From positions 10,105 to 74,104 of IMG/VR virus record IMGVR_UViG_3300028832_000131: a stretch of 64,000 bases of DNA, one strand, 5' to 3'. Under the pieces are notes generated by a model that saw only the letters and a program-made list of their open reading frames with translations, searched no databases and was not told the origin of the DNA. The stretch comes from a virus (taxonomy: Duplodnaviria; Caudoviricetes). Shown here piece after piece: positions 28,237 to 47,084 of this stretch (within the stretch, counting starts at the first letter, position 1; each line of letters begins with the position of its first letter). Made by a program: the position numbers and the translations under genes.

Positions 28237-28260
28237 AAAATATTTTGAGAGGTGATTTTA

Positions 28261-29250: not shown

Positions 29251-29281
29251 TAAATAAATCATATTCAAAGGGAGAAGTAAG

Positions 29282-30187
29282 ATGGAAAAGAAAAAAATAG
29301 TATTATTACAACATTATTACAACGAAATAGGTGGAATTGAAACATTTCTACGAAACTTCTGTAAGAGGTTTGGTGATGAATATGATATGACACTTGTATG
29401 CCGTGAAATAAGTTTTGAAAATGCTATCGTTCTTAGTAAATACGTTAACGTAGTTATTGAACTTACTTCCCCAATAGAGTGTGATATTTGTATTATAACG
29501 AGTGTTTTGGTTGATGATGAATACTTCAGCCAAATAAGGTATAAAGAAATATATCAAATGATACATTCCGATTGGACGGCTATGAAAAAGTTTTGGGATT
29601 GGAAGTTTCGAGAAAAAGACCCTAATACTAAATACATAGCAGTTAGCGAATGTGCTAGGCAATCTTTTATTAGAGAGTTTAATAAGGATAGTGTAGTTAT
29701 ACCAAATATATTGGATGATGAAGATTATCAAATAAAAATAGTAGTATTTAGTAGATTAACTGAAGAAAAAGGTTATGCTAGATACTGTACTTTGTGCGAT
29801 TTGTTTGAAAAATATGGATATACTTATGTAATAGACGTATTTGGAACTAATCCGCTTAATTACGTTAACTATAAAAACTTGATAATTCATGACCCTATAC
29901 GAGACGGTCAACGAGTTATGAAGGCTTACGATTATGTCGCTCAATGCTCTGATACAGAGTCGTTTTGCCTGACAATGTACGAGGCTTTGCAACAACACGT
30001 TCCCGTCTTGGTAACACCGTTTCCTAATGCCGTATTAGACATTAAGGACGGAGAAAATGGTTATATACTACCATTCGATATGAAACTTACTAAGAAAGAT
30101 ATTGATAAAATAGTTAATAAGATTCCTAAAAATGTTGATTATAAGCAGAAGGGAGTTTACGAGTTATGGAAAAAAATATTAAAGTAA
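29282..30187 (+). CDS. GT-B (GT4-like) glycosyltransferase
   Basis: IGGIETF, YIAVSE, VIPN, SRLTEEKG, SDTESFCLTMYEAL...PVLVT. Confidence 0.88.
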   Translation: MEKKKIVLLQHYYNEIGGIETFLRNFCKRFGDEYDMTLVCREISFENAIVLSKYVNVVIELTSPIECDICIITSVLVDDEYFSQIRYKEIYQMIHSDWTAMKKFWDWKFREKDPNTKYIAVSECARQSFIREFNKDSVVIPNILDDEDYQIKIVVFSRLTEEKGYARYCTLCDLFEKYGYTYVIDVFGTNPLNYVNYKNLIIHDPIRDGQRVMKAYDYVAQCSDTESFCLTMYEALQQHVPVLVTPFPNAVLDIKDGENGYILPFDMKLTKKDIDKIVNKIPKNVDYKQKGVYELWKKILK

Positions 30188-30327
30188 GAGTTACTCAATA
30201 TTATAGAGATATTGTAGAGGACACATACTTTACCGCTGGTACAGTTCGCTACTTAGATTATCAACGTGCTAGGGAATTATTAAGTAAAGGTTTAATAGTA
30301 ATAATGGAGATAAGGAAGTGTAAATAA
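30166..30327 (+). CDS. 53-aa protein (KVRV..YY.D...RARELLSKG type, often in head modules)
   Basis: ORF overlaps the GT stop and the next start exactly. Confidence 0.55.
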   Translation: MEKNIKVRVTQYYRDIVEDTYFTAGTVRYLDYQRARELLSKGLIVIMEIRKCK

Positions 30328-30659
30328 TGAGTGATAGTGAGAAAATAATAAAAATGAGAATATCTATTCTTGGAGCATCTGATGATGATTCGCAAGACGA
30401 TTTATTATATTCAATGTTAGACGATGCTAAAAGCATCGCATTAGATACACTTTATCCATTTGACCCAAACGCAGAACTTCCTAGCACATGGAGAATGGAT
30501 ATGTGGTTAGTAAGGTGTGCAATCGAACTATACAATAAGAAAGATAACACTAATGTTCAAATGTATACTGAAAATGGTATATCTGTGTCTTATCTAAGTG
30601 GATTAATTTCTAAGTCGTTATTAGACGAATTAATTCCTAAGGCTGGTGTTCCAAAATGA
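30327..30659 (+). CDS. Head-tail adaptor
   Basis: 110 aa, AIELYNK...YTENGISVSY; position in the module. Confidence 0.8.
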   Translation: MSDSEKIIKMRISILGASDDDSQDDLLYSMLDDAKSIALDTLYPFDPNAELPSTWRMDMWLVRCAIELYNKKDNTNVQMYTENGISVSYLSGLISKSLLDELIPKAGVPK

Positions 30660-31030
30660 TACCAGTAAAGGCGAATCCTGAAACTTGGGCTAAAAAGTTA
30701 TATATAGCCAGCAAGATTGGAACAGAGTTAGATGATGAGGGTAATGAAGTAAGTACTTATGCTACTCCCGTAGAATATTCCTTTAATTATAGAGGAGTTA
30801 AATCTAATGCTGAAATGGTTGAGTTTGGTGAAAAAGCGAGTATAACTCAAAGAATGGTAATACCAATTTCGTATGACGGAATGTTTAAAGAGTTTGACGT
30901 AGCATATTTATATGGGACAACTCCTGAAGGAGAATACAATAATGGTGACAAAGCCAATTATGTATTATTGCCTCCTAGAGTTGGTAATTCAGTAATAATA
31001 ATCTATATGCAAAAGATAGTAGGAGAGTAG
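30656..31030 (+). CDS. Head closure (stopper) protein
   Basis: Position and beta-rich sequence. Confidence 0.7.
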   Translation: MIPVKANPETWAKKLYIASKIGTELDDEGNEVSTYATPVEYSFNYRGVKSNAEMVEFGEKASITQRMVIPISYDGMFKEFDVAYLYGTTPEGEYNNGDKANYVLLPPRVGNSVIIIYMQKIVGE

Positions 31031-31037
31031 GTGTTTT

Positions 31038-31208
31038 ATGTATAAGTTCAGTAATGGTGTAGTAGTTTTTACGGAGGAAGATAAAGAGGCTTTCATAAAA
31101 GCGGGCTATGTTTTAGTAAAGGAAGAAAATGAAAACAAAGATAACAGCGGAACTATCAAGGAACAGTCTAAAGCAAGCAATAAAATTACTTCGAGAGTTC
31201 GAAAGTAA
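31038..31208 (+). CDS. 56-aa hypothetical protein
   Basis: MYKFSNGVVVFTEEDKEAFIKAGY...; AGGTG RBS. Confidence 0.5.
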   Translation: MYKFSNGVVVFTEEDKEAFIKAGYVLVKEENENKDNSGTIKEQSKASNKITSRVRK

Positions 31209-31665
31209 TTATCAAAAAGGTGTGCATGATTCAATAAAATCAGCCACCGAGGCTATGTATAATAAAGTCCTTCAAAACTGTTACGAAAACGGAATAAGTA
31301 ATCATACGAGTGAAATCCATTGGGAGTACGATGATTCAAAAAACATTGGGCGAGTATGGACTAACGATATGGTACTAATATTCAACGAAATGGGGACAGG
31401 AGTAAAAGGACAAAATAAACCTCATCCCAAAGCGGATGGCTGGGAATATGATATAAACGGACATGGCGAACAAGGCTGGTGGTATCCAACAACTGATAAT
31501 GACCCTAATCCAATAAAAAGAATTGGAAAAGACGGTCAATTAAGAGGTTGGACTGCTGGTTTGCCTAGCAGAAGAATGTTTTATGATGCTTACGAAAGTA
31601 TGAAAAATGAAATAGGAGACTATGTTGAAATCGAATTGCGAAAAAATATTGGCAATTTATATTAA
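31129..31665 (+). CDS. Neck/tail completion protein (HK97 gp10-like)
   Basis: FNEMGTG, AGLPSRRMFYDA. Confidence 0.75.
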   Translation: MKTKITAELSRNSLKQAIKLLREFESNYQKGVHDSIKSATEAMYNKVLQNCYENGISNHTSEIHWEYDDSKNIGRVWTNDMVLIFNEMGTGVKGQNKPHPKADGWEYDINGHGEQGWWYPTTDNDPNPIKRIGKDGQLRGWTAGLPSRRMFYDAYESMKNEIGDYVEIELRKNIGNLY

Positions 31666-31679
31666 AGGAGTGATTAAGT

Positions 31680-32165
31680 ATGGTAGTAGAAAATATATTT
31701 GATAGTGTGTTCTATCCTGCTTTTAAAGAGTATGTAGAGGCACACAACAATTATTCTGCTAAAGTAGTTAAAATTAATCCTGAAGACAGCAAAGTATTTC
31801 CTATAATACCTGTTAGACTACTTTCTGTATCCAATAGATATAACAATCTAAACTATGGTGAAGAAACTTATTCTTTTGGTATAGAAATTGATATATATGC
31901 CGTAGATACAACAGTTGAGGAAGTTGTTACTGAAAATAGCCAATCAACTGTTATACATAAAAAAGTATCTAAAAAAATGGTTTGCGACAATTTGTGTGAA
32001 ATAATAGTTGATTATATAAAAGAAACATATCATTTTACAGTAAGAGTAAATCATGATGCTCCTAACATGGATACAAATGTTCACAGGACATTAATTCGAT
32101 TAACTGGAGTATTAGATACTAAATATGGAAATGACAATTTAGTAATATATCCAACTTTGAGATAA
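31680..32165 (+). CDS. Tail terminator
   Basis: FPIIPV, FGIEIDIYA; position before the tube gene. Confidence 0.7.
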   Translation: MVVENIFDSVFYPAFKEYVEAHNNYSAKVVKINPEDSKVFPIIPVRLLSVSNRYNNLNYGEETYSFGIEIDIYAVDTTVEEVVTENSQSTVIHKKVSKKMVCDNLCEIIVDYIKETYHFTVRVNHDAPNMDTNVHRTLIRLTGVLDTKYGNDNLVIYPTLR

Positions 32166-32205
32166 GCACTTCTAAAAAGGGAAAAAATATGAGAGGTGAT
32201 TATTA

Positions 32206-32637
32206 ATGATAGACTTAGGTATTGAACTAAGAGTAAAAGCATCAACAGATGCAAAATATCCTTATGCAAAATTAGTAGCAGTTAAAGGTATGCCTGCAAC
32301 AGGACAAGCAGGTGGAAACGTAGAAACAACTACTTCAAGTGACCCAGTTAAAGTATATATTCCAGACCGTCCTGATACAGGAGATATGGACTTCACTTAT
32401 AACTATTCACAAGATAACTTAACAGCAGTTCAAGCAGTATGTGATAATACAGTAAAAGATATTCTTATCAAGTTCCCAGACGGAGCAGGATTTGAATACA
32501 AAGGTGTATGTCAAACTTGGATTAATGAAGAATCAGTTGGTGGAGTTATGGAATGTACTATTCATACAACACCAAGTGTTGCAGGAACTTATCTAAACTC
32601 AACACAAGTTGCTGCTAAAATAAGTGCAAGTAACTAG
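32206..32637 (+). CDS. Major tail tube protein
   Basis: VETTT..D..KVYIP..PDTGDMDFTYNY; siphovirus tube pattern. Confidence 0.85.
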   Translation: MIDLGIELRVKASTDAKYPYAKLVAVKGMPATGQAGGNVETTTSSDPVKVYIPDRPDTGDMDFTYNYSQDNLTAVQAVCDNTVKDILIKFPDGAGFEYKGVCQTWINEESVGGVMECTIHTTPSVAGTYLNSTQVAAKISASN

Positions 32638-32662
32638 GAAATAAAAGAGAGGGAAATTAACG

Positions 32663-33013
32663 ATGCGAAAATTGAAATTAAAAATCAAGGATGAAGAATA
32701 CATTCTTGAATATAACAGAGATTCGATTAAATGGTTAGAGTCAGTTGGTTTTGATATAGAACAACTAACTATTAAACCTCTAACTTATAGGGAAATGTTA
32801 TGGCAATCTTTATTCGTAAAAAACTATGGTAATACAGTAAATCCAAAATTAGCATTAAAACTAATGGATACGTATACTGAAGAACATGGTGCAAAAATGA
32901 CTGCTAAAGTAGTTAAGTTTGCACTAGACGAATACACGGCTTTTTTCAATGCCCTAGCAGATACAAACTCCGAGAAGACGGAGGAAGAGGAATTAGAGAT
33001 AATCGAACAATAG
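32663..33013 (+). CDS. Tail assembly chaperone G
   Basis: Between tube and TMP; contains the slippery site. Confidence 0.85.
   Translation: MRKLKLKIKDEEYILEYNRDSIKWLESVGFDIEQLTIKPLTYREMLWQSLFVKNYGNTVNPKLALKLMDTYTEEHGAKMTAKVVKFALDEYTAFFNALADTNSEKTEEEELEIIEQ
32941..32947 (+). other. -1 programmed ribosomal frameshift site (T TTT TTC)
   Basis: Heptamer is in register; the -1 frame is open from 32944 through ORF 33070-33453. Confidence 0.85.
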
Positions 33014-33453
33014 AAGAAGAAGGCAAGAAATATAAAAACTTAACAGATTGGTTTTATGATTTATTACCTTTGGCGATAACATACGGTATGTCTGTAAAAG
33101 AGTTTTGGGAAGATAACCCAGACCTGTTCTGGGCATACCGTTTTTCTTATTATAATAATATGAAAAATGAGCAAGAGGCTTTAAACTTCCAATTATGGTT
33201 ACAGGGATTATATTTCCATGAGGCTGTATCTGTAGCATTGTTTAATTCTTTTGGAAAAGGAAAAAAACTTACTTATTCCGACAAGCCTTATATTTTATCA
33301 CAAAAAGAGGAAGAAGAAGAGTATAAGAAACAACAAAAGAAGTTAGAAATACAAATTAAAAATCGTATTTCGGAAATGCAAAAGATAAAGGGCAAAGAAG
33401 AAGAGGCATTACCAAATCAAAAGGGAGAAGGTGGTGAAAACAATAATGGATGA
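32944..33453 (+). CDS. Tail assembly chaperone GT extension
   Basis: LAITYGMSVKEFWE..P; reached by frameshift. Confidence 0.8.
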   Translation, partial: FQCPSRYKLREDGGRGIRDNRTIEEEGKKYKNLTDWFYDLLPLAITYGMSVKEFWEDNPDLFWAYRFSYYNNMKNEQEALNFQLWLQGLYFHEAVSVALFNSFGKGKKLTYSDKPYILSQKEEEEEYKKQQKKLEIQIKNRISEMQKIKGKEEEALPNQKGEGGENNNG

Positions 33454-36400
33454 TACACAAAGTTTAGAATTACAACTAAAAACAACTGGTGAAGAAACTT
33501 TAAAAGTATTAAAAGAAGTTGCTAGTGAAATAACTGGAATTGATGGCTCACTAAAGGACATTAGTAAAACCATTAAAAACGTATCTTCTGTATCTTCTCA
33601 AATAAACGGAATTGATACTTCTGCTAAGAAGGCATCAATAAGTGTAGATAACTTAAATAAATCATTTGGTAAGTTAATTTCATTTGCTGCTATCAAAAGA
33701 ATAGGAATTAAGGCTTTTGAGTTTGTAGATTCCGCATCTGATAGGGCGGAGGAATTAAACTTATTTAATGTTATTTTTAAAAACATAACTGTAAACGGAG
33801 AAAAGACTTTTTCTGAATTAGGACAAGATGCTATGAGATTCCAAAACCAATTAAACGAGGCTTTTGGAACAAATATGACTGAAACATTACGTTATCAAGG
33901 TTTGTTTCAGGCTATGGCAACTAACCAAGGTGTAGAAGAAAAATATGCCTCATTAATGTCAGAAAATATGCTTAAACTAACTTATGATTTAGCATCTTTA
34001 TATAATCGTAATGAAAAGACTGTTGCTGAGGCTTTGCGTGGTGGTGTATATGCTGGACAGACTAAACCTTTACGTGGATTTGGTATTGACGTTACACAGA
34101 CTACGATGAAACCATTGCTTGCTGAATTAGGTATAGAAAAATCCGTCAACGAATTATCTCAGGGTGAGAAACAAATATTACGTTATATAGCGACATTAAG
34201 GCAGGCTCAATCTGCTATGGGAGACTTTGCTGATACAATAGAATCTCCTGCTAACCAATTAAAAATATTTAAACAACAGTTAGCCGAAGTTAAAGTTGCT
34301 ATAGGTAATTTATTTATGGGCTTATATGCTAATATACTTCCTTATGCCAATGCTATTCTAATGGTTATTAAGGAAATAGCCAAAGCATTAGCCGATTTAT
34401 TTGGAATAGATACAAAGGACTATAATAGCGGTTTAGCAAGTACTGAAGAAATATATGACGGTATTTCTACAAGTGCAGGAAATGCGGCAAAATCTGCTAA
34501 AGAGTTAAAGAGACAATTATTAAAGTTTGATGAAGTAAATAACTTGACTACTCCTAGCAGTTCAGGAAGTGGTTCAGGAAGTGGCGGAATAAATGGTGGT
34601 ATAGACCAAAGATTACTTGATGCGTTAAAAGGATATGATAATTTAATGGGTCAAGTAAAAATGAAGGCTACTGCAATTCGAGACAGAATCATGGAATGGC
34701 TTGGTTTTACAAAGGAAGTTAACTTGTTAACTGATGAAACGTCTTTCAAATTTGACCATATAACTGGTGGTACTGTATTAGGTGCGTTAGCAGTTGGTGG
34801 AACTATATATACTGGTGTCAAAAAAATATATGACATGGTCATGGCTATATTTGGAAAAAAGGCGGTAGAAGAAACTGGAAGTGCTGTACTTTCAACTGCG
34901 GCAGGAGGTGCTGCAAAAGGTGCTGGTACTGCGGCTGGAGGTGCTGCAAAAGGTGCTGGTACTGCGGCTGGAGGGAAAGGATTAGCAAGCATAGCATCTG
35001 CTGTCGGATATACTGATTTAGTGGCTGCTGGTGGAGCATTAGCCTTTATTGCAACAGAAATGTATGACGTAAACGAAAGAGCAAAAGAATTAAATACTTT
35101 CGAATATAAGAAAACTGGATTAGCAGAAGGCATAGAAGATTTTAATACTTTATTTGGATTAATGAGTTTAAATCCAATAGGAGCAGTATTTAATTTCAAC
35201 ACAATAAATGATATGTTAGCAACTATGCAAGATGGCATGAGTAATGTAATTACACAAGGTGCAATATTTGATGAAACTATTAGTGAAATATCACAAGAAA
35301 AATTAACAGATTTAATTAATGAGTTTATTACTTTAGATAATATTGTAGGTGAAATGAAATTCACAGGAAAGATTATATCTAAAGATGACGTAACTATAAT
35401 GAAAAATCTGCTTAAAATGATAAAACAAACAATAGTCAAAGAACTAGATGCTGATAAAAATGCCGAACTTGGTAATCTTAAAGTACTTGAAAAAGCGTTG
35501 GGAGCAAAAGATTATAAAAACATAGTTGATAGTATTAAAGGCTTTTATGAAGAACAAAAATTAGCAGTAGAAGAAGGCGAAAAACAAATAAATGATATTA
35601 TTGCTGCTGCTGCAGAAAGAGGAGGAGCATTAAGACAAGATGAATTAGACAAAATAGATGAAATTAGAAGTACTATGATGGATAACGGCATTAAAATAAT
35701 GACTGAATCTGAGGAAGAATACATTAAGATTACTACTCGTTTAAATCACAACATGGAGGCTTTAACACTCGAAAGAGCATCTGCAATTATAAAGAGTGCT
35801 AAAGAAACAAAAGAGAAAGCAATTCAAGAGGCCGAAGAACAATATGACAATGTTATTTTACAAGCAGAAAAATTACGTCAAGCAGGAATAATTAATGAAG
35901 ACGAATATAACAAAATGATAGATGCGGCTGAACTTGCTAAACAAGAAACAATTCAAAAATCTGATGAACAATATTCTTCTATTCTATCAACCGTAAAAGA
36001 AAAATTAGGCGAAAGTGCTAGTTATGTAGATACTGAAACAGGTGAAATAAAAACGAAAATGGAAGAGTGGAATGAAAACCTAAATACTGGTATTACAACA
36101 GGATTTGAAGGTTTTAAAACTGGTTTATCAACATTGCTATCTGACATAGGAAGAACATTACTTGGCTGGACTGGTATCTCTACATTTAAAACTAATACTG
36201 AAACCGAAATGGGAAGTCTTAAAACAAGTATTGAATCTTGGAAACCAAAGATACCAAGAATATCATGGTCTTCTAATGGTAAACAAACAACAGGAACATT
36301 AAAGTCTATACTTGAGGCACTTGGATTACCAACCACATTACCTAAACTATCAGTTACTTGGGTAAGTCAATATGCTAACGGAGGATTCCCAGAAGACGGA

Positions 36401-36658
36401 TTATTCTTTGCAAACCATAACGAGTTAGTTGGTAAGTTTAGTAATGGTAAGACAGCCGTTGCAAATAACGAACAAATAATTCAAGGTATTCAAAGCGGTG
36501 TTTATACTGGTGTTCTATCTGCTATGAGTCAAACAAATGCTGGCTCAAGTAAGGTTGACGTAGACGTTTATGTTCATAGCAACGAAGAAGTAGTCGTAGA
36601 TAAAATTAATCAAAAAACTAAACAAACTGGTGTGTGTCCAATTAACATACCAGCATAG
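33446..36658 (+). CDS. Tape measure protein
   Basis: About 1070 aa helical; LTYDLASLYN, PANQLKIF, YANGGFP. Confidence 0.95.
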   Translation: MDDTQSLELQLKTTGEETLKVLKEVASEITGIDGSLKDISKTIKNVSSVSSQINGIDTSAKKASISVDNLNKSFGKLISFAAIKRIGIKAFEFVDSASDRAEELNLFNVIFKNITVNGEKTFSELGQDAMRFQNQLNEAFGTNMTETLRYQGLFQAMATNQGVEEKYASLMSENMLKLTYDLASLYNRNEKTVAEALRGGVYAGQTKPLRGFGIDVTQTTMKPLLAELGIEKSVNELSQGEKQILRYIATLRQAQSAMGDFADTIESPANQLKIFKQQLAEVKVAIGNLFMGLYANILPYANAILMVIKEIAKALADLFGIDTKDYNSGLASTEEIYDGISTSAGNAAKSAKELKRQLLKFDEVNNLTTPSSSGSGSGSGGINGGIDQRLLDALKGYDNLMGQVKMKATAIRDRIMEWLGFTKEVNLLTDETSFKFDHITGGTVLGALAVGGTIYTGVKKIYDMVMAIFGKKAVEETGSAVLSTAAGGAAKGAGTAAGGAAKGAGTAAGGKGLASIASAVGYTDLVAAGGALAFIATEMYDVNERAKELNTFEYKKTGLAEGIEDFNTLFGLMSLNPIGAVFNFNTINDMLATMQDGMSNVITQGAIFDETISEISQEKLTDLINEFITLDNIVGEMKFTGKIISKDDVTIMKNLLKMIKQTIVKELDADKNAELGNLKVLEKALGAKDYKNIVDSIKGFYEEQKLAVEEGEKQINDIIAAAAERGGALRQDELDKIDEIRSTMMDNGIKIMTESEEEYIKITTRLNHNMEALTLERASAIIKSAKETKEKAIQEAEEQYDNVILQAEKLRQAGIINEDEYNKMIDAAELAKQETIQKSDEQYSSILSTVKEKLGESASYVDTETGEIKTKMEEWNENLNTGITTGFEGFKTGLSTLLSDIGRTLLGWTGISTFKTNTETEMGSLKTSIESWKPKIPRISWSSNGKQTTGTLKSILEALGLPTTLPKLSVTWVSQYANGGFPEDGLFFANHNELVGKFSNGKTAVANNEQIIQGIQSGVYTGVLSAMSQTNAGSSKVDVDVYVHSNEEVVVDKINQKTKQTGVCPINIPA
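34895..34974 (+). repeat. 33-bp tandem repeat in TMP (TAAGGAAKGAG)
   Basis: 2.4 near-perfect copies. Confidence 0.85.
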
Positions 36659-36689
36659 ATAAAGTGTAGCACTTTCTTTTAAAGGGAAA

Positions 36690-37163
36690 TTGAAAGATGG
36701 TGATATGATGATACAAGAATATACTCAAGGAGTTTATACTTATAAGTTAGCAAGCCCATCTGTAGTAATATCTAAAGTTAAAATAAACAACGTAGATATA
36801 TCTAAATATTTATCTAACAACTCTCAAGTTGGTTGGTATGACGTTTCTAGGAATAGTGGACGTGATACTACTACTGCTGACGGGAAAATGATACTTAATG
36901 TTATATCTACTAAATATAGACTTGATTTAGTAACTAGACAATTAACTCGTGATGAAATAGTTGATTTCTTTGCACAAATTAAATTACGTCCTACTATGGA
37001 AGTAAAGTTTTTAAATCCATTTACTAATACTTGGAAAACAATAAATGCTTATAGAGGAGATAGAATTGCTCAGGCTGCTTATCCAGTTCAAGTAACTGAG
37101 GGAGTAAATAATGCTTTGGTTGAAATCTTTAATCCAGTATCAATAGCATTAATAGAATTGTAG
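36690..37163 (+). CDS. Distal tail protein-like
   Basis: Follows TMP; SGRD..ADGKM..VI..KY.L, FLNPFT...AYRGDR. Confidence 0.7.
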   Translation: MKDGDMMIQEYTQGVYTYKLASPSVVISKVKINNVDISKYLSNNSQVGWYDVSRNSGRDTTTADGKMILNVISTKYRLDLVTRQLTRDEIVDFFAQIKLRPTMEVKFLNPFTNTWKTINAYRGDRIAQAAYPVQVTEGVNNALVEIFNPVSIALIEL

Positions 37164-37170
37164 GTGTTAT

Positions 37171-38832
37171 ATGGTAAGTGAAGAGTTTATAAATGAGTGT
37201 AAAAATTATGCTTATGAAAACCGATATGGAAAAATAGAGTTTTCAAGTCCCTCATTAGAATTAAATCAAAGCAATAAAATACAAGAGTTTACTATAGATG
37301 ATGGTTGCTATGATAATGGTGATATTGTAGGATCTGTGTATGTAAAGAAACTAACAGCCAAACTTATAGATGCTATTGAAGATAACATAGAAAATAGAGA
37401 ATTTGATGCTAGTGTTGGTGTTACTTATAATGTGGTTGAAGAGATTGACGGTGAAGACGTAGAGAGTGAAGAAACCGAATATATGGACTTAGGCTCATAC
37501 ATAGTAGAGAAACCTAAAGACGAACAAACGGAAAACTTTTCATCATTTGTTAGTTATGACTTGTTAATGCAACATTTAGATGAAAAATATACGACTTCAT
37601 TAGATTATGAAAATGAGACTATAACAATAGCAGACGTTTATGAAGAAGTATGTAGTTTACTAAATGTAACACCAGTAACATTAACATTTACAAATAGCAC
37701 AATTCAAGTTGAAGATAATCCATTTGTAGGTGGAGAAACAAATCGTATGGTATTAAACTCTATTGCAAAAACTGCTTGTGCATTTGTAGATATAGATTAT
37801 GATACAAATGAAATAGATTTAAAATGGTTAAGCAATAGTTTAGATTATACCTTCGAATTAAGCGATTATTCGTCCTTAGAAGGCGGAAAAACTGTATATG
37901 GACCAATTAACTCATTAATAATAAAAAGTAGTGCTATAGATAGCGAAAACGTGTCTTATGATGATGATGAAAGCATTGCACTATATGGAGAACACCAATT
38001 AGTTATAAGTGAAGATTATTTCTTATATAATGCAGATAAAAGAGAAGAAGCTTTAATGCCTATATGGAATAAAGTAAATGGACTAACGTATACAGAATGT
38101 AGTTTGACTACTTATACTGGTAAACCATTTTTGAAAAAAGGTAGCAAGATAAGAATATACAAAGACGAAGAAAATTACATAGATAGTTATGTATTACAAC
38201 ACCAATTTAAGTTTGATGGTGCATTTACAAGTATAATCAAATGTCCTGTATTAACAGAACAAGAAATAAAAACAAAACAAGACATAAGCTTAGGCGAAAA
38301 ACTAAGACAAACCGAAATAATTGTTAACAAACAAAACGGAACAATTACAAGTGTAGTATCGAGAACAGATCAATTAGATACAACAGTAAATAATAACTAT
38401 CAAGAAATTATTAACAAGTTTGATGCTTATGCTCCACAGTCTGCAATAGTAGATATACAAACACAAGTACAAAACATTCAAACAGACACATACAGTAGAA
38501 CACAAATAGATACTATGATGATAGATGGTACTGTAAAAAAAGTACAAACAGCAAGTGCTACTTATGATGAAAGTGGAATGACTTATGAAAAAAGTAACTC
38601 AAATGCAAAAACAACAATAAATGAGGTTGGAGTACAAGTTAAAGACTCTAACACTAATAACACAATATTATTTGCTGGTTATGTAGATGGTAATAATACA
38701 CAATATACTGCATATCAAGGACAGACAATCGTAGCAACCGACAATATTATTGTAGACAATTATTTAGTTATAGGAACACATAGCAGATTTGAAGATTATG
38801 AATCAGGAACAGGTTGTTTCTTTATAGGGTAG
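37171..38832 (+). CDS. Baseplate hub / minor tail protein
   Basis: 553 aa; position; C-terminal coiled coil and beta segments. Confidence 0.75.
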   Translation: MVSEEFINECKNYAYENRYGKIEFSSPSLELNQSNKIQEFTIDDGCYDNGDIVGSVYVKKLTAKLIDAIEDNIENREFDASVGVTYNVVEEIDGEDVESEETEYMDLGSYIVEKPKDEQTENFSSFVSYDLLMQHLDEKYTTSLDYENETITIADVYEEVCSLLNVTPVTLTFTNSTIQVEDNPFVGGETNRMVLNSIAKTACAFVDIDYDTNEIDLKWLSNSLDYTFELSDYSSLEGGKTVYGPINSLIIKSSAIDSENVSYDDDESIALYGEHQLVISEDYFLYNADKREEALMPIWNKVNGLTYTECSLTTYTGKPFLKKGSKIRIYKDEENYIDSYVLQHQFKFDGAFTSIIKCPVLTEQEIKTKQDISLGEKLRQTEIIVNKQNGTITSVVSRTDQLDTTVNNNYQEIINKFDAYAPQSAIVDIQTQVQNIQTDTYSRTQIDTMMIDGTVKKVQTASATYDESGMTYEKSNSNAKTTINEVGVQVKDSNTNNTILFAGYVDGNNTQYTAYQGQTIVATDNIIVDNYLVIGTHSRFEDYESGTGCFFIG

Positions 38833-38842
38833 GTGATAATTA

Positions 38843-41104
38843 ATGGCAAGAACAGATTGGCAAACAATTAGTGGTTCAACAAATAACAATTCGGCATTCT
38901 TTACAGGTATAAGATGGCGATATAGAGATGATTTATTTGGAACAGGCGAATATCCTAGCGATAGAGTTTCAAGTAATACTGATATTATTGAATACCAACC
39001 ATTTGTAGGTAAAAAGAGTTCATCATATACCTCAAATTATTATTCTAACTGGTTATCATCTAATTATAAATACTCATACAATACAACAAGTGGAAATGAT
39101 CCTGATGCTGCAAGTAATCAATTAAATGTATCAACAACATTCAGATTTGATAAAGCTAGTGTTAATTCAACGTATTACTTAACACAAGGTAGTTTATCTG
39201 CTGGTAATGTAATGAATACAAGTTCATCAAATACTTCAAGAATTATAGAAGTACCACATTGTACAGATGGAACAAGCAAATTAAGATTGTATTTCTATTT
39301 TGCTGGTAATTCAAATACTTCGTTTAGATATGCTGAAACAAACGGAATTGTTACACTTGAAACAATACCAAGAGCAAGTTCAATAACAGTAAATGATGCC
39401 AACATAGGAAGTAGTACAAATATAGTTATAAACAAAGCAACAGCAAGTTTTACTACAACATTGGAATATTCAACGGATAATAGTACATGGAATACTATTG
39501 TAAGTAAAACGAATAATCAAGTATATGGTTGGACTGTGCCTACAAGTTTTTATTCACTAATACCTAATGCTAAAACAATAACTTGTTATTTTAGGGCAAC
39601 AACATATTCGGGGGATACAAATGTTGGAGTTAAAACTACACAAGCTATATTTACTGCAACAGGAAATCCAGTAATAAATAGTTCAAGTGCAACAGATACA
39701 AACAGCACGACAGTAGCATTAACTGGTAATAGTGCAAATATGGTTAAATATGCTTCTAATGTTCAAATATCGATTAATGTAAGTGGACAAAATAGTGCAA
39801 GTATAAGTTCAGTAACAGTAAATGGAAACAATGTAACATTAAGTGGCACAGATCCAAAAACTGGTTCTATAACATTTGTTGCTGCAAGTACAAATTCATT
39901 TGAAATAAAAGTAACAGATAGTAGAGGTTATCAAACAACAACTACTAAAACAATGACTATGGTAGATTATATACCATTATCAATTAATGCAACAATAAAA
40001 AGAAATCAACCAACTGATGAAAAAGTAAATATTAATTTTAGTGGTAATTATTACAATGGTAGTTTTGGTGCTGAATCAAATACGTTAGTAGTTCAATATA
40101 GATATAAAGAAAGTACAAGTTCAAGTTGGGGAAACTGGACTAATGTAACAGCAACAATAACTGATAATACATATAGTGGTTCAACACAAATAAGCAATAT
40201 TGATTATACAAAGCAATATGATTTTGAAATTCAAGCAATAGATGAAATACAACCAAAACCTATTGTAGGTATAAGAGTATCAAAAGGAACACCAGTATAT
40301 TGGTGGGATAATGACCAATTTAATCTAAATGGTAAATTATATACAAGTAATGCTGGTAGAGAAGATTATGCTGCATTTGGATTTATTTATGATGGTGCAG
40401 GTAATATGAAACACAAGAGAAACGATAGTGGTGATAGCTTTCAAATTCAGGCATACAATGGAACAGCTACTGTTGGAATCAATCCTGAAAGTGGTAATGT
40501 AAATGCTAATGGAAAAACAATTTCAAACAATGGATTTTATTCAAGAGAAACAGGTGAAGTTGGAACACCAAGTGGCACAGGTACATTAATGATTAAAAGA
40601 GCAACTAATAGTGAAGCACCAAACAATGGAGTAGTATTAGAGTATGGAAATTCAACAACGTGGACAGGTCAATTATATATAGGTGATAATGCCGACCAAG
40701 GTGTTTATTATAATGGGTGGTCTAATGGAACAAGAGGCAGTTGGAAAAAATTAATGTTTATAACTGAAACAGGTAGTAATAGCAATGGTAATTATATGAA
40801 GTTTGATGATGGAACACTAATTTGTACAAAAAGAATAACAGGAACAGTAAATATTTCTACAGGTTGGGGAAATGGTCAAACTTCTAGTGGAATAAGTCTA
40901 GGTAATTGGGCTTATGAATTTACTGATGAGCCAGTAACAACTGTATCACCAAAAAGAGGTACAGGTGGTTATAACTATTGGTTAGGTGCTTTACAAGATA
41001 CGTCAAAAACATTTGTAGGTAATATAACACTATTACGTTTCACTTCATCTAACAATGTTAATTACATTATATATGCTACTGGAATAGGTAGGTGGAAATC
41101 ATGA
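38843..41104 (+). CDS. Tail fibre/minor structural protein (DUF859-like with C-terminal receptor-binding-type domain)
   Basis: VPHCTDG, TIPRASS, SNGNYMKFDDGTLIC; Ser/Thr/Asn-rich. Confidence 0.78.
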   Translation: MARTDWQTISGSTNNNSAFFTGIRWRYRDDLFGTGEYPSDRVSSNTDIIEYQPFVGKKSSSYTSNYYSNWLSSNYKYSYNTTSGNDPDAASNQLNVSTTFRFDKASVNSTYYLTQGSLSAGNVMNTSSSNTSRIIEVPHCTDGTSKLRLYFYFAGNSNTSFRYAETNGIVTLETIPRASSITVNDANIGSSTNIVINKATASFTTTLEYSTDNSTWNTIVSKTNNQVYGWTVPTSFYSLIPNAKTITCYFRATTYSGDTNVGVKTTQAIFTATGNPVINSSSATDTNSTTVALTGNSANMVKYASNVQISINVSGQNSASISSVTVNGNNVTLSGTDPKTGSITFVAASTNSFEIKVTDSRGYQTTTTKTMTMVDYIPLSINATIKRNQPTDEKVNINFSGNYYNGSFGAESNTLVVQYRYKESTSSSWGNWTNVTATITDNTYSGSTQISNIDYTKQYDFEIQAIDEIQPKPIVGIRVSKGTPVYWWDNDQFNLNGKLYTSNAGREDYAAFGFIYDGAGNMKHKRNDSGDSFQIQAYNGTATVGINPESGNVNANGKTISNNGFYSRETGEVGTPSGTGTLMIKRATNSEAPNNGVVLEYGNSTTWTGQLYIGDNADQGVYYNGWSNGTRGSWKKLMFITETGSNSNGNYMKFDDGTLICTKRITGTVNISTGWGNGQTSSGISLGNWAYEFTDEPVTTVSPKRGTGGYNYWLGALQDTSKTFVGNITLLRFTSSNNVNYIIYATGIGRWKS

Positions 41105-41205
41105 TTAGTTTTATTGTAGGATTTATGTTAGGTGCTTTTATAGGTATGATGATAATGGCATGTATTCAAATAAATAAAGGAGATGATAAAAATGGAGAAG
41201 ATTAA
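41101..41205 (+). CDS. 34-aa single-TM peptide (DUF3789-like)
   Basis: MISFIVGFMLGAFIGMMIMACIQINKGDD. Confidence 0.5.
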   Translation: MISFIVGFMLGAFIGMMIMACIQINKGDDKNGED

Positions 41206-41407
41206 AAAAATTAGTAAATACACCATGAATATTTTAGCAATGATAAATGCGTTAATTATAGGATTAAGTCCAATATGGAATTGGCAACTAGATAAAATTA
41301 CAGATAGTATAGCAATTATTATAGGTGTAATTGGTTTATATTTAGTAGGTGGCAAATTATTTGAAGTTGAAGAAATAATACCAGAAGAAGAGGACAAAGA
41401 AGAATAA
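41183..41407 (+). CDS. Holin-like two-TM protein
   Basis: Two TM segments and an acidic tail. Confidence 0.5.
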   Translation: MIKMEKIKKISKYTMNILAMINALIIGLSPIWNWQLDKITDSIAIIIGVIGLYLVGGKLFEVEEIIPEEEDKEE

Positions 41408-41423
41408 ATAAAAAGGACGTGAC

Positions 41424-42968
41424 GTGATGAATAATATAAATATATTAATTGAAAAGGCAACAAGAGAAGTACATTTATCAAAAAGTGTAATTGGTAATGA
41501 TGGTGAAAATCTACAAGAAAATTTAGTTTTCTCTTTTGATGAGTTTGTAGACGGAACAGCAAGAATTGAATTATTAAAATCAAACGAAGAAAAATCATAT
41601 ATTATGTTAGAAAAGGTAGATGAAACATACCAGTTACCTATAAAATCAGTATTAACAAAAAGCGGAAGACTAAACTTACAATTAGTCATTACACAAGGTA
41701 GTGATGATGAAGAAATACCAATATTTAAAAGCAATAAGTTTTATTTGGTAATTAATTCGAGTATTAATGCAGAAATAGAAGAAGAAGAGGAATATCCACA
41801 ATGGATAGACGTAGCTAATACAAAATTAAATGAAATAGATGAAGCTTTGGAAGATCTACAAGAAAAAGTGGATAATGGATATTTTAAAGGTGACAAAGGT
41901 GATACAGGTGATAGAGGTCAAGACGGTGTTAATGGTAAAGATGCAAAAATAAATGGAGTAAATACAATATCATTAATTGCTGGAGATAACATTACACTAA
42001 ATCAAAGCGGCAACGAATTAGAAATAAGTGCAACAGGTGGAAGTGGTGGTGGAGCAGTAAATAGCGTAAATGGTATGACTGGTGACGTAATTATAAACAT
42101 ACCAGAAATACCAAAAAATGTAAGTTCATTTACAAATGATGCGGGTTATCTAACAGAGCATCAAGATTTGAGTGGAAAACAAGATAAAATAGATAATTCA
42201 AATAAATTAAATGCAGATTTAGTTGACGATAGTACAAGTACAAATAAATTTACAAACGCAACAGAAAAAGCAACGTGGAACGCAAAAAGTAATTTTAGTG
42301 GCAATTATGAGGATTTAACTAATAAGCCAGATTTAAGTAATTATCAAACAATAATAGATAGTACGCATAAACTAGGTGCAGATTTAGTTGATGATAGTAC
42401 AAGCGAAAATACATTTTTCTATATTGGGAAAATGAGTGATTTAAGCACAACAAATTGGTTAGATTTAAGAAAAGCAAAAAAAGGTGTATATTTGCCAGAT
42501 AAAACATATAATTATATGATAGATGAATTGGATAGTGATTATTCAACGTCATCAACTATAAGATATTATGAATTACAAACAATTTTTGTTCTAAAAGAAA
42601 TAAATGGTATTGCAACACCAAGTGAAAATCTATATTTTGCATACGCCATTGCATTTGGAGAAGAAGATGGCTCACCTTTACTTGTGAAGTTTTACGTAAA
42701 CACAACAAGAAAAATTGATTTTCAATCGGTGTCATTCGCAGATGCAAAAATGATTGGTACAGGTGGACAAACAATAAATGGACAAAAAACATTTACTTCT
42801 ATACCAAAACAGAATAACACAAATGCTCCAACATTAGATAGTCAATTTACAAATAAAAAATATGTAGATGATAGTATATCTAATAAAATTTGGATAGGTA
42901 CACAAGAAGAATATGATGCAATACTAACAAAAGACGAAAACGTATTGTATTTCATTCGAGAGGCATAA
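41424..42968 (+). CDS. BppU-like baseplate/fibre protein with collagen-like and internal repeats
   Basis: N-terminal GENLQENLVFSFD..., GDKGDTGDRGQDG, VNSVNGMTGDV, duplicated KL.ADLVDDSTS. Confidence 0.7.
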   Translation: MMNNINILIEKATREVHLSKSVIGNDGENLQENLVFSFDEFVDGTARIELLKSNEEKSYIMLEKVDETYQLPIKSVLTKSGRLNLQLVITQGSDDEEIPIFKSNKFYLVINSSINAEIEEEEEYPQWIDVANTKLNEIDEALEDLQEKVDNGYFKGDKGDTGDRGQDGVNGKDAKINGVNTISLIAGDNITLNQSGNELEISATGGSGGGAVNSVNGMTGDVIINIPEIPKNVSSFTNDAGYLTEHQDLSGKQDKIDNSNKLNADLVDDSTSTNKFTNATEKATWNAKSNFSGNYEDLTNKPDLSNYQTIIDSTHKLGADLVDDSTSENTFFYIGKMSDLSTTNWLDLRKAKKGVYLPDKTYNYMIDELDSDYSTSSTIRYYELQTIFVLKEINGIATPSENLYFAYAIAFGEEDGSPLLVKFYVNTTRKIDFQSVSFADAKMIGTGGQTINGQKTFTSIPKQNNTNAPTLDSQFTNKKYVDDSISNKIWIGTQEEYDAILTKDENVLYFIREA

Positions 42969-42969
42969 T

Positions 42970-43068
42970 ATGAAAATAACTAATGATATAAAATTTTATG
43001 CAGGAACAAATGAGATTATAAAAGTATATAAAGGAGAAGAAATAATATATACTATGGATAAAAAATGA
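42970..43068 (+). CDS. 32-aa fibre-associated peptide
   Basis: FYAGTNEIIKVYKGEEIIY resembles fibre-adjacent motifs. Confidence 0.4.
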   Translation: MKITNDIKFYAGTNEIIKVYKGEEIIYTMDKK

Positions 43069-43087
43069 AAACAAAGGAGGTGAAAAT

Positions 43088-43903
43088 ATGGGAAAAGTAT
43101 TTACAGCACAACAATTTATAGATAAATTAAAATGGCTTGTTAATGACGTTCCTAACGTGTATTATAGTGGCTCTAATTGGTCTAAACTTAATTCAAGTGG
43201 TAAATGGCAATTCGACTGTGTATTGTCCGTTAAATCGCTTTTATGGGGCTTTAAAGGAGATAAAAACTTATTTAGAGGGGGAACAGTATATAAATCTAAT
43301 GGAGTAGCAGATTTTAGCTGCAACGGAGCATTAAATTATTGTACAGACGTTAGCACTAATTTTAATAATTTAGTGGCAGGCGAGTATTTATGTATGAAAG
43401 GAACTTCTCACAACCACACAGGTATTTATTTAGGCAATGGAAAAGTGTTTGAAGATACAACAGGTTGGGGTACTAAAAAAGCTATAATAAGTGATATAGA
43501 TAAAAATGGTGTACGTAGTTATAAAGGTGTTAAGAGCCTTAGATGGACGTATCATGGCAAATTAAATTATATAGATTATTCTAATGAGCCAAAACCTATC
43601 AATCAAGTAATGATATGGCAAGAAGCAATGAATAAACAATGGAATTGTGGACTTGCAGTAGACGGATCATTTGGTCCTGCTTGTACTAAGGAAGCAACAA
43701 AACATTACTTACATTATGGAATAAAAGCACCTATTATGGTTAAGTGGCTTCAAACAAGATTAAAAGAATTAGGTTATTCACTAGCAGTGGACGGAAGCTT
43801 TGGACCAGACTGTCGCAAAAAAGTCAAAGACGTACAAAAACGTTTTGGATTAGCAGTCGATGGAAATGTCGGTCCTGCAACAACTAAGGCATTAACAGAA
43901 TAA
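43088..43903 (+). CDS. Endolysin (NlpC/P60-like peptidase plus PG-binding domains)
   Basis: FDCVLSVK Cys, HTGIYLGNG His, repeated LAVDGSFGP motifs. Confidence 0.88.
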   Translation: MGKVFTAQQFIDKLKWLVNDVPNVYYSGSNWSKLNSSGKWQFDCVLSVKSLLWGFKGDKNLFRGGTVYKSNGVADFSCNGALNYCTDVSTNFNNLVAGEYLCMKGTSHNHTGIYLGNGKVFEDTTGWGTKKAIISDIDKNGVRSYKGVKSLRWTYHGKLNYIDYSNEPKPINQVMIWQEAMNKQWNCGLAVDGSFGPACTKEATKHYLHYGIKAPIMVKWLQTRLKELGYSLAVDGSFGPDCRKKVKDVQKRFGLAVDGNVGPATTKALTE

Positions 43904-43923
43904 GGGAAGAAAAGGAGTAGATT

Positions 43924-44250
43924 ATGGTTGAGCAAATAATAAAAACTATAATTAGCTATTTAGTCCCTGCATTAATAGGTTTTCTTATTGCACAAGTAAC
44001 TGGTTATAGAAAGAAAAACAATAGTATGAAAATTGCAATAATGACATTATTACAAAGTAATTTGACAAACACATATTTCTTATATGATGATGAAAAAACT
44101 ATACCTGACTATATATATAAAAATTTTCTTAACGAATTAAAAGCATACGAAGGATTAGATGGTGATGATTACGTTCACACTATTGCAGAAAAAATGAAAT
44201 CATGGAAGATTATTCGTACAGATATATTGCACGATAAACCACAAATATAG
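43924..44250 (+). CDS. Holin-like/lysis-associated membrane protein
   Basis: N-terminal TM, follows the endolysin. Confidence 0.55.
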   Translation: MVEQIIKTIISYLVPALIGFLIAQVTGYRKKNNSMKIAIMTLLQSNLTNTYFLYDDEKTIPDYIYKNFLNELKAYEGLDGDDYVHTIAEKMKSWKIIRTDILHDKPQI

Positions 44251-44300
44251 TAAGTTTATGAGGCGGTTTATTCCGCCTTTTTTTATAAAGGAGAAATCAA

Positions 44301-44570
44301 ATGGAAGAAGAAATTAAAGAAATAAGACAAATTGCATTAGAAAACAAAAAAGCAATTCAAGAGCATACTGAAAATATAAAAGAAAGTTTTGAAAAAATAG
44401 AACAAAACTCGTTTGTTTTAGATATTATTAAAGATTATAAAAACGAAATTGATACATTAAAAGACATTGTCAAAACAAACAAAAAAACAATTAAGATTAT
44501 GTTAGGTATACTAATATTTATGTTAATTTTATTAGGAGTTGTTTGTTATCATCATTTAATAATCGTGTAG
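44301..44570 (+). CDS. Coiled-coil protein with C-terminal TM
   Basis: Heptads then MLGILIFMLILLGVVCY. Confidence 0.6.
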   Translation: MEEEIKEIRQIALENKKAIQEHTENIKESFEKIEQNSFVLDIIKDYKNEIDTLKDIVKTNKKTIKIMLGILIFMLILLGVVCYHHLIIV

Positions 44571-44580
44571 GTGAAAGCCT

Positions 44581-44781
44581 ATGAAAAGTTTTAATTTTAG
44601 TAGAACTGAATATGAATACATTTGCGAAGAAGCGATGCTTAATGAAAAATATAGAAAACTTTTAAAAATGAAAATATTAGATTATTCAAGAGCCAAAATG
44701 GCAGATGAATTAGGCTATAGTATTGATACGATAGATGATATGGTGGCAGAGTTAAAGAAAAAAATAAAAAAAGCAATATAA
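44581..44781 (+). CDS. Sigma70-region-4/LuxR-like HTH (head of the post-lysis cassette)
   Basis: YSRAKMADELGYSIDTIDDMVAELKKKI. Confidence 0.7.
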   Translation: MKSFNFSRTEYEYICEEAMLNEKYRKLLKMKILDYSRAKMADELGYSIDTIDDMVAELKKKIKKAI

Positions 44782-44821
44782 TTACTAAAAACATTGCCAA
44801 TTTTAATACCAAAAATACTAC

Positions 44822-44851
44822 AAGAACATTACAAAACAATGTTCTTTTTTT
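44822..44851 (+). terminator. Intrinsic terminator after the HTH gene
   Basis: AAGAACATT/AATGTTCTT plus T-run. Confidence 0.7.
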
Positions 44852-44880
44852 ATGCAATAATGTAAGTGAAAGGAGATATT

Positions 44881-45003
44881 ATGACTGAATTAATGGAAGA
44901 ACTTTTAAAAATAATGGATAAAGAATGCGAAGAATGTAAAGAATGGCAAAAAAACAAGCCTCTCATAATTAATATATATGTAGGAGATGATGAATATGAA
45001 TAA
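44881..45003 (+). CDS. 40-aa acidic peptide with CxxC
   Basis: MTELMEELLKIMDKECEECKEWQKNKPLIINIYVGDDEYE; AAGGAG RBS. Confidence 0.5.
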   Translation: MTELMEELLKIMDKECEECKEWQKNKPLIINIYVGDDEYE

Positions 45004-45346
45004 TCAATATATAATAGATAATTTAGTAAGACAACGAGAAAAGATAGATGATATGCTACGTGGCTATCAACAACCTCAACCAATGAATGTATTTAATGTG
45101 GGAGGCACTCAAATCGATTTTGAGGCACGTATGATAGGCAAAGACGAGAAACCAAGTGAAATTATGGTACAACGTAAAACAGCGTTTATATCGTTGGATA
45201 ATTCGTTATTAACTATAAAAGAAATTAACGGAGATATTAAAGAATATAAAATACAAATACCAAAAACAAAAGAACAAATTGAAAATGAAGAGTTAAAGAG
45301 AAAAATTAAAGACTTAGAAGACAAATTAAGAGAGAGAGGTAAATAA
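44987..45346 (+). CDS. Cassette protein, Gln/Asn-rich N-terminus and coiled-coil end
   Basis: 119-aa ORF. Confidence 0.7.
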   Translation: MMNMNNQYIIDNLVRQREKIDDMLRGYQQPQPMNVFNVGGTQIDFEARMIGKDEKPSEIMVQRKTAFISLDNSLLTIKEINGDIKEYKIQIPKTKEQIENEELKRKIKDLEDKLRERGK

Positions 45347-45347
45347 T

Positions 45348-45548
45348 ATGAATATGAGTTTTTTACAACAAATAATTAAAAGTGGTAATCCAAAACAAAT
45401 GATATTAAATATGATGACACCACAACAAAAGCAAATGGCAGAAGCTTTTTTAAATAATCCTAACAGAGAACAAGCTTTGAAAGATCTGATGAAACAACAT
45501 AACGTAACAGATGAACAAATAAACTCTGTAAAAAGTATTATTAAATAA
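45348..45548 (+). CDS. Cassette protein, small Gln/Met-rich helical
   Basis: GNPKQMILNMM...ALKDLMKQHN. Confidence 0.7.
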   Translation: MNMSFLQQIIKSGNPKQMILNMMTPQQKQMAEAFLNNPNREQALKDLMKQHNVTDEQINSVKSIIK

Positions 45549-45583
45549 GATATTAATATTATTAATATAGAAAGGAGGACACA

Positions 45584-46096
45584 ATGAACGGAACAACAGG
45601 AATTGGGTTAGATTGGAGTGGTCTAATTGGATTACTTATCATAGCTGGGATATTTGGATATGGTAATGGGTTTGGATTTGGAGGCAATAATGCAGTATCT
45701 ACTTTGACAAATGCTGAGCTTCAAATGGGACTATACAATCAAACTACTGACAACGCTATTCGTGGCATATCAAGTCAAGTTGCTACCTTGAATGATACTG
45801 TCTTAATGGGTAAGTATGATAACGCATTACTAATGAAAGATGCGTCACAACAACTATCTAATAGTATTGCATCTATTGGTAATTTAGTAGTACAAGAAAA
45901 TCAGGCTACTAGAGATATGATAATGCAAAATAAGATTGATTCATTATCAGACACAATTACAATTCTACGTGGAGAGAATAGTAATTTAAAACAAACCGCT
46001 GAAATCACCCAAAATATTTTAGGTAGTTTAGCTACTACTGCTCCAAAACCACCATGTTATTATGGATATGGTTGCGGTTGCAATTCTCTATACTAA
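45584..46096 (+). CDS. Cassette protein: TM/Gly-rich N-terminus, coiled-coil stalk, Cys/Tyr/Gly tail
   Basis: LIGLLIIAGIFGYGNGFGFGG; ENQATRDMIMQNKIDSL; PCYYGYGCGC. Confidence 0.75.
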   Translation: MNGTTGIGLDWSGLIGLLIIAGIFGYGNGFGFGGNNAVSTLTNAELQMGLYNQTTDNAIRGISSQVATLNDTVLMGKYDNALLMKDASQQLSNSIASIGNLVVQENQATRDMIMQNKIDSLSDTITILRGENSNLKQTAEITQNILGSLATTAPKPPCYYGYGCGCNSLY

Positions 46097-46116
46097 GGTA
46101 TAGATTGACTTATATT

Positions 46117-46145
46117 GACTAGACACTATAAGTCTAGTCTTTTTT
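46117..46145 (+). terminator. Internal cassette terminator
   Basis: GACTAGAC/GTCTAGTC plus T6. Confidence 0.8.
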
Positions 46146-46164
46146 AAAGAAAGGAGGTAATAAA

Positions 46165-46527
46165 ATGTGTAATACAATATTTTGTTCAAACGTAACAACT
46201 ACTGATACAGCAGTTGTATTAATTCCTAATCAAGAAATTAAAACTTTAGAAAACGTTGGTTGTTATAGATTAATTATATGTTGCAACGCTACTGCTACTA
46301 GCAACTTGCCTGTATTTATTCAAGTAGGGACTACTAATATTCCTGTGTTATGTCATGCAGGTAATGTAGTATACTCTTCACAATTAACTAAACGTAAAAA
46401 TTATCCAATTATATATGGAAACGAAAACCCAGAATATACTAATGGACAATTTGTAATACAAGGTAATATATGCCCAAGAGCTGCAACTATACCAGCAGTA
46501 CAAACAACAACACAAAAAGTTAAATAA
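46165..46527 (+). CDS. Cassette protein: Cys-rich beta-sandwich-like
   Basis: Seven Cys, beta-rich, 120 aa. Confidence 0.7.
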   Translation: MCNTIFCSNVTTTDTAVVLIPNQEIKTLENVGCYRLIICCNATATSNLPVFIQVGTTNIPVLCHAGNVVYSSQLTKRKNYPIIYGNENPEYTNGQFVIQGNICPRAATIPAVQTTTQKVK

Positions 46528-46544
46528 AGAATGGAGGTGAAAGT

Positions 46545-46985
46545 ATGATAAAGGAATATATAAATAAAATAGGAAATATAAAAGATTCGAATAAAATGGA
46601 TAAATTAGGAGAAATGTTAGAAAAATTAATATATAATTTAAAAGATGAACACGAAGAAGAATATGAAAAATATAAAACAGAATTATACGAATTAGCTTAT
46701 GGGAAAAAGATAAGTAGAGAAATGGCAGTAGAGTGGGTGAATAGTATGAAACCATTAGGAGAATACTGGACTATAGACCAAACTACAAATGCTATGCAAA
46801 CGTTAGGATATAATTTAGATTCAATAGATTTTTATGTAGCGGCTAATATGATAATGAACGATTATAGTGATTTATTAGAAGAGGAAGAAGAATTAGCATT
46901 AAAAATGGCTTATGATTGGTTAAATGATGAAGATGCTAAAGATAATAAATTATATTGTTATTGGAAGCATATAGTAAAAAAATAA
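46545..46985 (+). CDS. Cassette protein: acidic helical
   Basis: AVEWVNSM..GEYWT..QT, FYVAANMIMNDY, AYDWLNDEDA...KLYCYW. Confidence 0.75.
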   Translation: MIKEYINKIGNIKDSNKMDKLGEMLEKLIYNLKDEHEEEYEKYKTELYELAYGKKISREMAVEWVNSMKPLGEYWTIDQTTNAMQTLGYNLDSIDFYVAANMIMNDYSDLLEEEEELALKMAYDWLNDEDAKDNKLYCYWKHIVKK

Positions 46986-47008
46986 GAGCATTAAACTCTT
47001 ATTTTTCT
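46981..47008. terminator. Bidirectional terminator
   Basis: AAATAAGAG...CTCTTATTT flanked by A and T runs. Confidence 0.65.
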
Positions 47009-47054
47009 TTAGGATAACACCTACTACGGACTAAATATATTATACCATATAAGT

Positions 47055-47083
47055 TTGACAAAAGCGAGTATATAGTGTATATT
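47055..47083 (+). promoter_or_regulatory. SigA promoter of a stand-alone gene
   Basis: TTGACA-17-TATATT. Confidence 0.7.
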
Positions 47084-47084
47084 A

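Follow-up and report, generated by a model that had tools for sequence, protein, structure and literature searches.

Why should a single viral contig be all but free of two common four-letter words along one long stretch and carry both of them from there on? The question is raised by the window under study, a stretch of 64,000 nucleotides that corresponds to bases 10105-74104 of a single 74,104-bp viral contig and contains no N. A first-pass annotation, based on a scan by eye, had reported no GATC in positions 1-37330 and a single AGCT, at 19312, before 38049, and had estimated that about 90 copies of each word should be expected. It had interpreted the change as the join of two genomes in the tail module.

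Computation reproduced these counts. GATC is absent from window 1-37330 (contig 1-47434) and occurs 27 times to the right of 37330, at all the positions listed by the first-pass annotation and at further sites that include 39098 and 43665. AGCT is present in one copy (19312) left of 38049 and in 59 copies from 38049 on. For window 1-37330, a base-composition model gave 104 expected copies of GATC and of AGCT each, and a maximal-order Markov model gave 86 and 94, respectively. The earlier estimate of about 90 is in line with this range of 86-104, and the observed counts are far below it rather than at normal frequency. The probability of a zero count of such a word in this interval is lower than e^-80. 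To the right, AGCT is near expectation (59 of 68), and GATC reaches about 40% of it (27 of 68). The change-point analysis that the annotation had proposed was done as a scan for a single break, fitted by maximum likelihood to both words jointly over the whole contig. The best break fell at window 37330 and raised the log-likelihood by 83. GC content is nearly level across the seam, with a small shift from 0.33 to 0.31, and base composition therefore does not account for the shift in the two words. CCGG, GCGC and CGCG have zero copies anywhere in the contig; since they are missing on both sides, they are not markers of the seam.

Geometry of the contig and position of the join

The closest relative of the contig is IMGVR_UViG_3300028797_000022 (hereafter named G001), a complete genome of 49,485 bp with a 127-bp end repeat. 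Mapping showed that the 74,104-bp contig covers about 1.5 turns of this genome. Contig 1-7,500 corresponds to the tail tip and lysis region, contig 7,538-54,780 to one full turn and contig 54,670-74,104 to a second copy of the early region. When the contig was compared with itself, contig 47022-74104 was found to repeat contig 1-28,300 gene for gene, with 66-85% nucleotide identity. The two copies begin alike: contig 1-127 is exactly identical to contig 47022-47148 (window 36918-37044), and contig 1-383 shows four differences from contig 47022-47404. From contig 47405 (window 37301), the copies diverge by about 25-30%, at every third or fourth base. It follows from this geometry that one phage, named here phage A, closes on itself once in the left part, with a period of 47,021 bp; the second phage is named phage B. 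The A-specific part of the window (1-36884), together with the 10,104 contig bases that precede the window, forms the full circle of 47,021 bp. The contig measures about 1.58 genome lengths, with A complete within it. It is longer than its complete relatives and its gene content is repeated, as in an over-extended contig. An end repeat of the 74-kb contig was looked for, and none was found.

At the join, A and B share an exact identity of 160 bases (window 36885-37044). Exact A/B stretches of at least 127 bases number three in all, and the one at the seam is the longest. Independent parental contigs, described below, imply that the contig is A up to 37044 at most and B from 36885 at least. The A/B border is thus window 36885-37044, not 47.4 kb, and the join that the first-pass annotation had located at 36660-38052 is pinned to this switch zone. 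Given that the contig is A followed by B, the GATC/AGCT seam is the border of two separate genomes. The parts of the window are as follows.

1..36884: phage A-specific part; no GATC, one AGCT; collinear with G001
19312..19315: sole AGCT of phage A, inside a minus-strand ORF (19281-19679)
36885..37044: true seam, common to A and B; longest exact A/B stretch
36918..37044: 127-mer identical to the contig start; last 127-mer of the common stretch
37045..37300: B sequence with a match of about 99% to A; differences at 37045, 37090, 37118 and 37179
37301..64000: phage B-specific part, with tail tip, lysis and early genes; 27 GATC and 59 AGCT

The minus-strand ORF holding the sole AGCT encodes 132 aa without a family match.

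The join lies in frame inside a gene for a Dit-like protein, in the following gene environment.

33431..36658, plus strand: tape-measure protein of A (PHROG 1533, PHROG 1535)
about 36690/36705..37163, plus strand: Dit-like gene (DUF6711), spanning the join
37171..38832, plus strand: B tail protein, 553 aa, no family match, in the baseplate-hub position
38843..41104, plus strand: B DUF859 tail protein, 753 aa
41424..42968, plus strand: B tail fibre or tail tip protein, 514 aa, with a Phage_tail_C domain
43088..43903, plus strand: B endolysin-like protein with a PG_binding_1 domain
47370..47939: the "apparent 47.4 kb junction", in fact plain intergenic DNA of B

The form of the A tape-measure protein that starts at 33446 has 1070 aa and is on record elsewhere. 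B's first GATC (37331) and its first AGCT (38049) both fall in the gene for the 553-aa tail protein, whose counterpart in A encodes 561 aa (contig 254-1939). In the Dit product of the contig, an A-type N-terminal part is combined with the B-type residues N114 and Q129.

Several other genes were noted along the two phages. MobA-like nucleotidyl-transferase genes (A 7830-8516, B 54439-55080) and family 2 glycosyltransferase genes (A 9186-9800, B 55473-56087) are present in the early regions and could have a part in decorating DNA or the host surface with sugars. A 301-aa gene (29282-30187) directly follows the SU10-type major capsid gene; its copy in ENA has precomputed matches to glycosyltransferase family 1, an unusual location for such a gene. 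A tRNA-Trp (anticodon CCA, 27378-27453) is located between the portal and head genes of A. An exact-product look-up of the 149-aa gene at 22795-23241 gave no match.

Parental junctions and the origin of the contig

Both parental genomes had been suggested by the first-pass annotation as objects of a search, and both parental junctions were found in independent assemblies. Parent B is represented by a contig of 45,047 bp (JGI 3300033463, Ga0310690_10001291). Its first 16.6 kb include a stretch with 0 differences from window 36885-51104, while 442 differences separate it from window 34484-36884. Its tape-measure part contains seven AGCT and one GATC, so that B has its own unpurged tape-measure gene. 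The same contig crosses 47370-47939 at 100% identity, which bears out the earlier proposal of one continuous genome B through 47.4 kb. A join at 47.4 kb was accordingly rejected: the independent B contig is continuous there and nothing changes. The exact 753-aa and 553-aa proteins of B are also encoded on Logan contigs of SRR10393135 and SRR10393136. The exact 553-aa product is found on five other contigs, each time after B's own Dit gene, and four contigs on record carry this Dit, each time adjoining B's tail protein.

Parent A is represented by ENA ERZ27256849, in which A's tape-measure protein (1070 aa) and tail protein (561 aa) are both encoded in exact form. A 152-aa Dit gene is located between the two, with the same spacing as in the contig. 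Of note, the ERZ27256849 contig has 69,031 bp and is also longer than one genome. After a full turn of A, it carries a second set of head genes, with a portal of 521 versus 537 aa and a capsid protein of 328 versus 329 aa, and it is probably a second chimeric walk, with the switch near the terminase genes.

Isolated phages gave no such matches. A near-identity DNA search of GenBank phages with window 30000-50000 found nothing, and the best GenBank phage relatives of TerL and of the 753-aa tail protein are about 25-28% identical, matches so distant that no parental genomes are present among isolated phages. A pattern-based search of IMG/VR for relatives of the 553-aa tail protein found none. 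An exact 34-base word of the common stretch had no match in IMG/VR and JGI metagenome contigs, a search from which the window's own or a very near record may fall outside.

We conclude that the contig is very probably a chimeric, over-extended assembly walk through two related phages of one sample. From the last 127-mer of the 160-base A/B stretch, the walk would set out along the branch specific to A and would circle the A genome once (47,021 bp), this genome being circular or terminally redundant. It would then re-enter window 36885-37044, leave on the B-specific branch and follow 27 kb of B until its end. In a de Bruijn graph with k=127, a contig leaving a shared node would begin with the k-mer of that node, which here is the contig start. 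The 127-base repeats suggest that the assembler used k=127; JGI metaSPAdes runs commonly finish at this value, and the 127-bp "terminal repeat" of G001 fits an assembly of this kind. With k=127 taken from these repeats, the join is inside an exact parental repeat of at least k. The position of the seam within 160 bases of identity between two genomes marks it as very probably a contig artefact, not a natural hybrid, and one near-identical A/B patch (36695-37300) would have misled the assembler. The third exact A/B stretch, which spans 130 bases where the MobA-like gene ends (window 8502-8631 / 55066-55195), is another contact point of the k=127 graph of A and B.

The hybrid Dit gives further clues. 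Its product is on record in no other assembly, in a look-up from which the window's own or a very near record may fall outside, and this absence elsewhere is suggestive evidence for an artefact. An exact-product look-up of the 157-aa form had no match; its start codon differs from the one chosen by gene callers. The parental junctions are recovered in independent assemblies and the hybrid one is not, with the same restriction for the window's own record.

The first-pass annotation had left the choice between an assembly chimera and a real recombinant with new host-range genes. The evidence favours the former, with 1.58 genome lengths, a start 127-mer at the join and separate parental junctions on its side, over the latter. 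A real recombinant would combine the head and tail-tube genes of A with the tail tip, lysis and early genes of B, only the extra turn of A being an artefact. Such an event is biologically possible in view of past exchange between A and B. The two phages are 98-100% identical at window 35045-35700 and 36695-37300, in surroundings of about 75% identity, and identity between A and G001 is no more than 75-86% in the second of these patches, a sign that the A and B lineages exchanged DNA recently. In these two patches B has no GATC or AGCT, and has such sites just outside both. Evidence of past exchange is thus present at exactly the site of the junction, and tail-tip swaps are common in siphoviruses. 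Against this reading, the contig starts with the very 127-mer of the join, as a graph walk leaves it, the parental junctions are present in independent assemblies and the hybrid Dit in none, and one artefactual join would still be needed to reach 1.58 genome lengths. No unit-length genome with the hybrid junction was found: the contig has about 1.58 lengths and there is no other hybrid-Dit contig. We therefore give a real recombinant very little chance. Equally slight is the prospect that the A-left/B-right junction arose in the rumen-type sample itself, as a fresh recombinant or as a mixed replication concatemer after co-infection. If true, a phage purged of GATC and AGCT would have gained an unpurged tail tip and early region, and siblings with different avoidance sets would swap host-range modules in place.

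There is next to no chance that the contig is one true 74-kb molecule, i.e., a diverged partial duplication, a mixed concatemer or tandem prophages, in which the site content would be functional and reflect, for example, the order of DNA entry. The IMG/VR entry does describe a linear virus with an estimated completeness of 100%. Uneven avoidance along the genome is reported for phages whose early-entering DNA is most exposed (PMC12455610), and could be cited in the same sense. Related complete or near-complete genomes, however, have 44-50 kb, the right part repeats the left gene for gene, and each part is found alone in other assemblies. The join falls within the reading frame of a structural gene rather than at an attachment site or genome end, and a capsid for about 49 kb could presumably not pack 74 kb. 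Tandem prophages in particular were rejected on account of the in-frame join within a structural gene; the recombinases are also against them, being only small and resolvase-type, in both A and B. These serine recombinase genes are on the minus strand (A 11397-12065, 222 aa; B 57681-58355, 224 aa), and no large integrase was seen in the parts of A and B examined.

As a chimeric assembly, the record listed as linear, 74 kb and 100% complete would consist of one whole phage of 47 kb followed by 27 kb from another. Statements on its genome size, on duplication, on "paralogous" modules or on elements "in both halves" would then compare two phages. The change point in restriction words placed a hidden mis-join within about 300 bases, where GC content and gene order gave no hint, and change points of this type could be a cheap screen for chimeric viral contigs.

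Loss of restriction sites in phage A and its siblings

The seam is not real as a feature of a genome; the purge of restriction sites is real and of a known kind. Over the 47 kb of A, GATC is absent (0 of 130 expected), AGCT occurs once (1 of 130), and CCGG, GCGC and CGCG are each at 0 of 25 expected, these palindromes being far under both the composition and the Markov expectation. The 49.5 kb of G001 likewise contain no GATC and no AGCT; both words are kept in phage B and in more distant relatives. Among 31 aligned coding sites with GATC or AGCT in B, A differs at every one, by 18 synonymous and 13 non-synonymous changes, so that 18/31 removals spared the protein. At two sites, GGA TCT has become GGT AGT, which keeps Gly-Ser and switches the serine codon family. 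Synonymous removal of this kind points to selection against GATC and AGCT. The host enzymes behind the purge in A and G001 would most likely be of the MboI/DpnII/Sau3AI type (GATC) and of the AluI type (AGCT). The first-pass annotation had proposed that the host of A possessed restriction systems for both GATC and AGCT. This is plausible, and fits both the synonymous changes and the purged G001.

The three siblings were compared for other words. CCGG and GCGC are missing in A, B and G001, and CGCG is missing in A and B and present in G001 (26 of 31 expected). CATG is missing only in G001 (0 of 142) and GACGC only in A (0 of 18, versus 27 of 21 in G001); GCTTCA is at 0 of 14 in A, and CGACG is absent in all three. 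A is without nine 6-base palindromes. CAATTG, CTTAAG, GAATTC, GATATC, TCTAGA, ATGCAT and CATATG are at zero or nearly so in A, B and G001, and B keeps a few copies of three 6-base palindromes overall, including three ATCGAT and three TGTACA. Sibling phages that exchange DNA and have lost different sets of sites fit strain-level differences in host restriction, a known phenomenon. The non-palindromic word ACATC/GATGT is also absent or nearly so in A (0 of 91), B (1 of 49), G001 (1 of 99) and one further relative (L004, 0 of 19), and is at normal frequency in other relatives. This loss suggests a shared host lineage with a system targeting the 5-mer.

A cause of the purge other than host restriction, i.e., mutational or codon-usage bias or a nuclease of the phage itself, seems unlikely; it would concern the purge only, not the seam. 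In its favour, the depletion of GATC extends to the whole phage family, where the word reaches 15-40% of expectation. Against such a cause, only specific palindromes fall to zero while base content and neighbouring words are normal, and serine codon families were switched to remove GATC. Among 30 early proteins of A and B (covering part of B only), Pfam scans detected no methyltransferase and no restriction-type nuclease, which also argues against this alternative. Nuclease-like matches in these proteins were limited to a GIY-YIG domain of homing type and a weak match to PD-(D/E)XK. A methyltransferase giving tolerance to B and a nuclease driving avoidance in A were both considered, and neither was found in those 30 early proteins.

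Many relatives are present in IMG/VR, with TerL proteins 65-93% identical, mostly on contigs of 44-50 kb. The sole lead to a host comes from TerL relatives of 65-72% identity in genomes of uncultured gut Bacilli. In loci L065-L082, TerL relatives of 53-72% identity occur in gut-derived genomes of uncultured Bacilli, "Tenericutes" and Clostridia, with contigs reaching 248 kb, which suggests prophage relatives and points to possible hosts of the family. There, GATC stands at 6-47% of expectation, and at less than a third in most loci.

Comparison with known systems

It is documented that assemblies can merge similar, co-occurring viruses into chimeric contigs, an error encountered more often with metaSPAdes than with MEGAHIT (PMC5610896). 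Like these chimeras, the contig joins two genomes at an exact identity at least as long as the k-mer, exceeds the complete genomes of its group, and has parents that were recovered separately. Unlike them, it completed a whole circle of A before the switch, and the join is hidden in frame within a tail gene. With this full circle, the contig passes for a large "complete" phage.

The patches of near-identity between A and B in the tape-measure and Dit genes, within diverged surroundings, resemble the tail-module mosaics of siphoviruses. The 74-kb arrangement differs from such mosaics: it exceeds unit length, and other assemblies did not yield its hybrid junction.

Complete loss of Type II sites has been reported in about a tenth of phage genomes (PMC6286503). 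The avoidance described here is similar in that GATC, AGCT, CCGG, GCGC and several 6-mers are lost or nearly so at normal composition, many of them through synonymous changes. It differs in that three siblings, at about 75-85% nucleotide identity, have lost different sets of sites.
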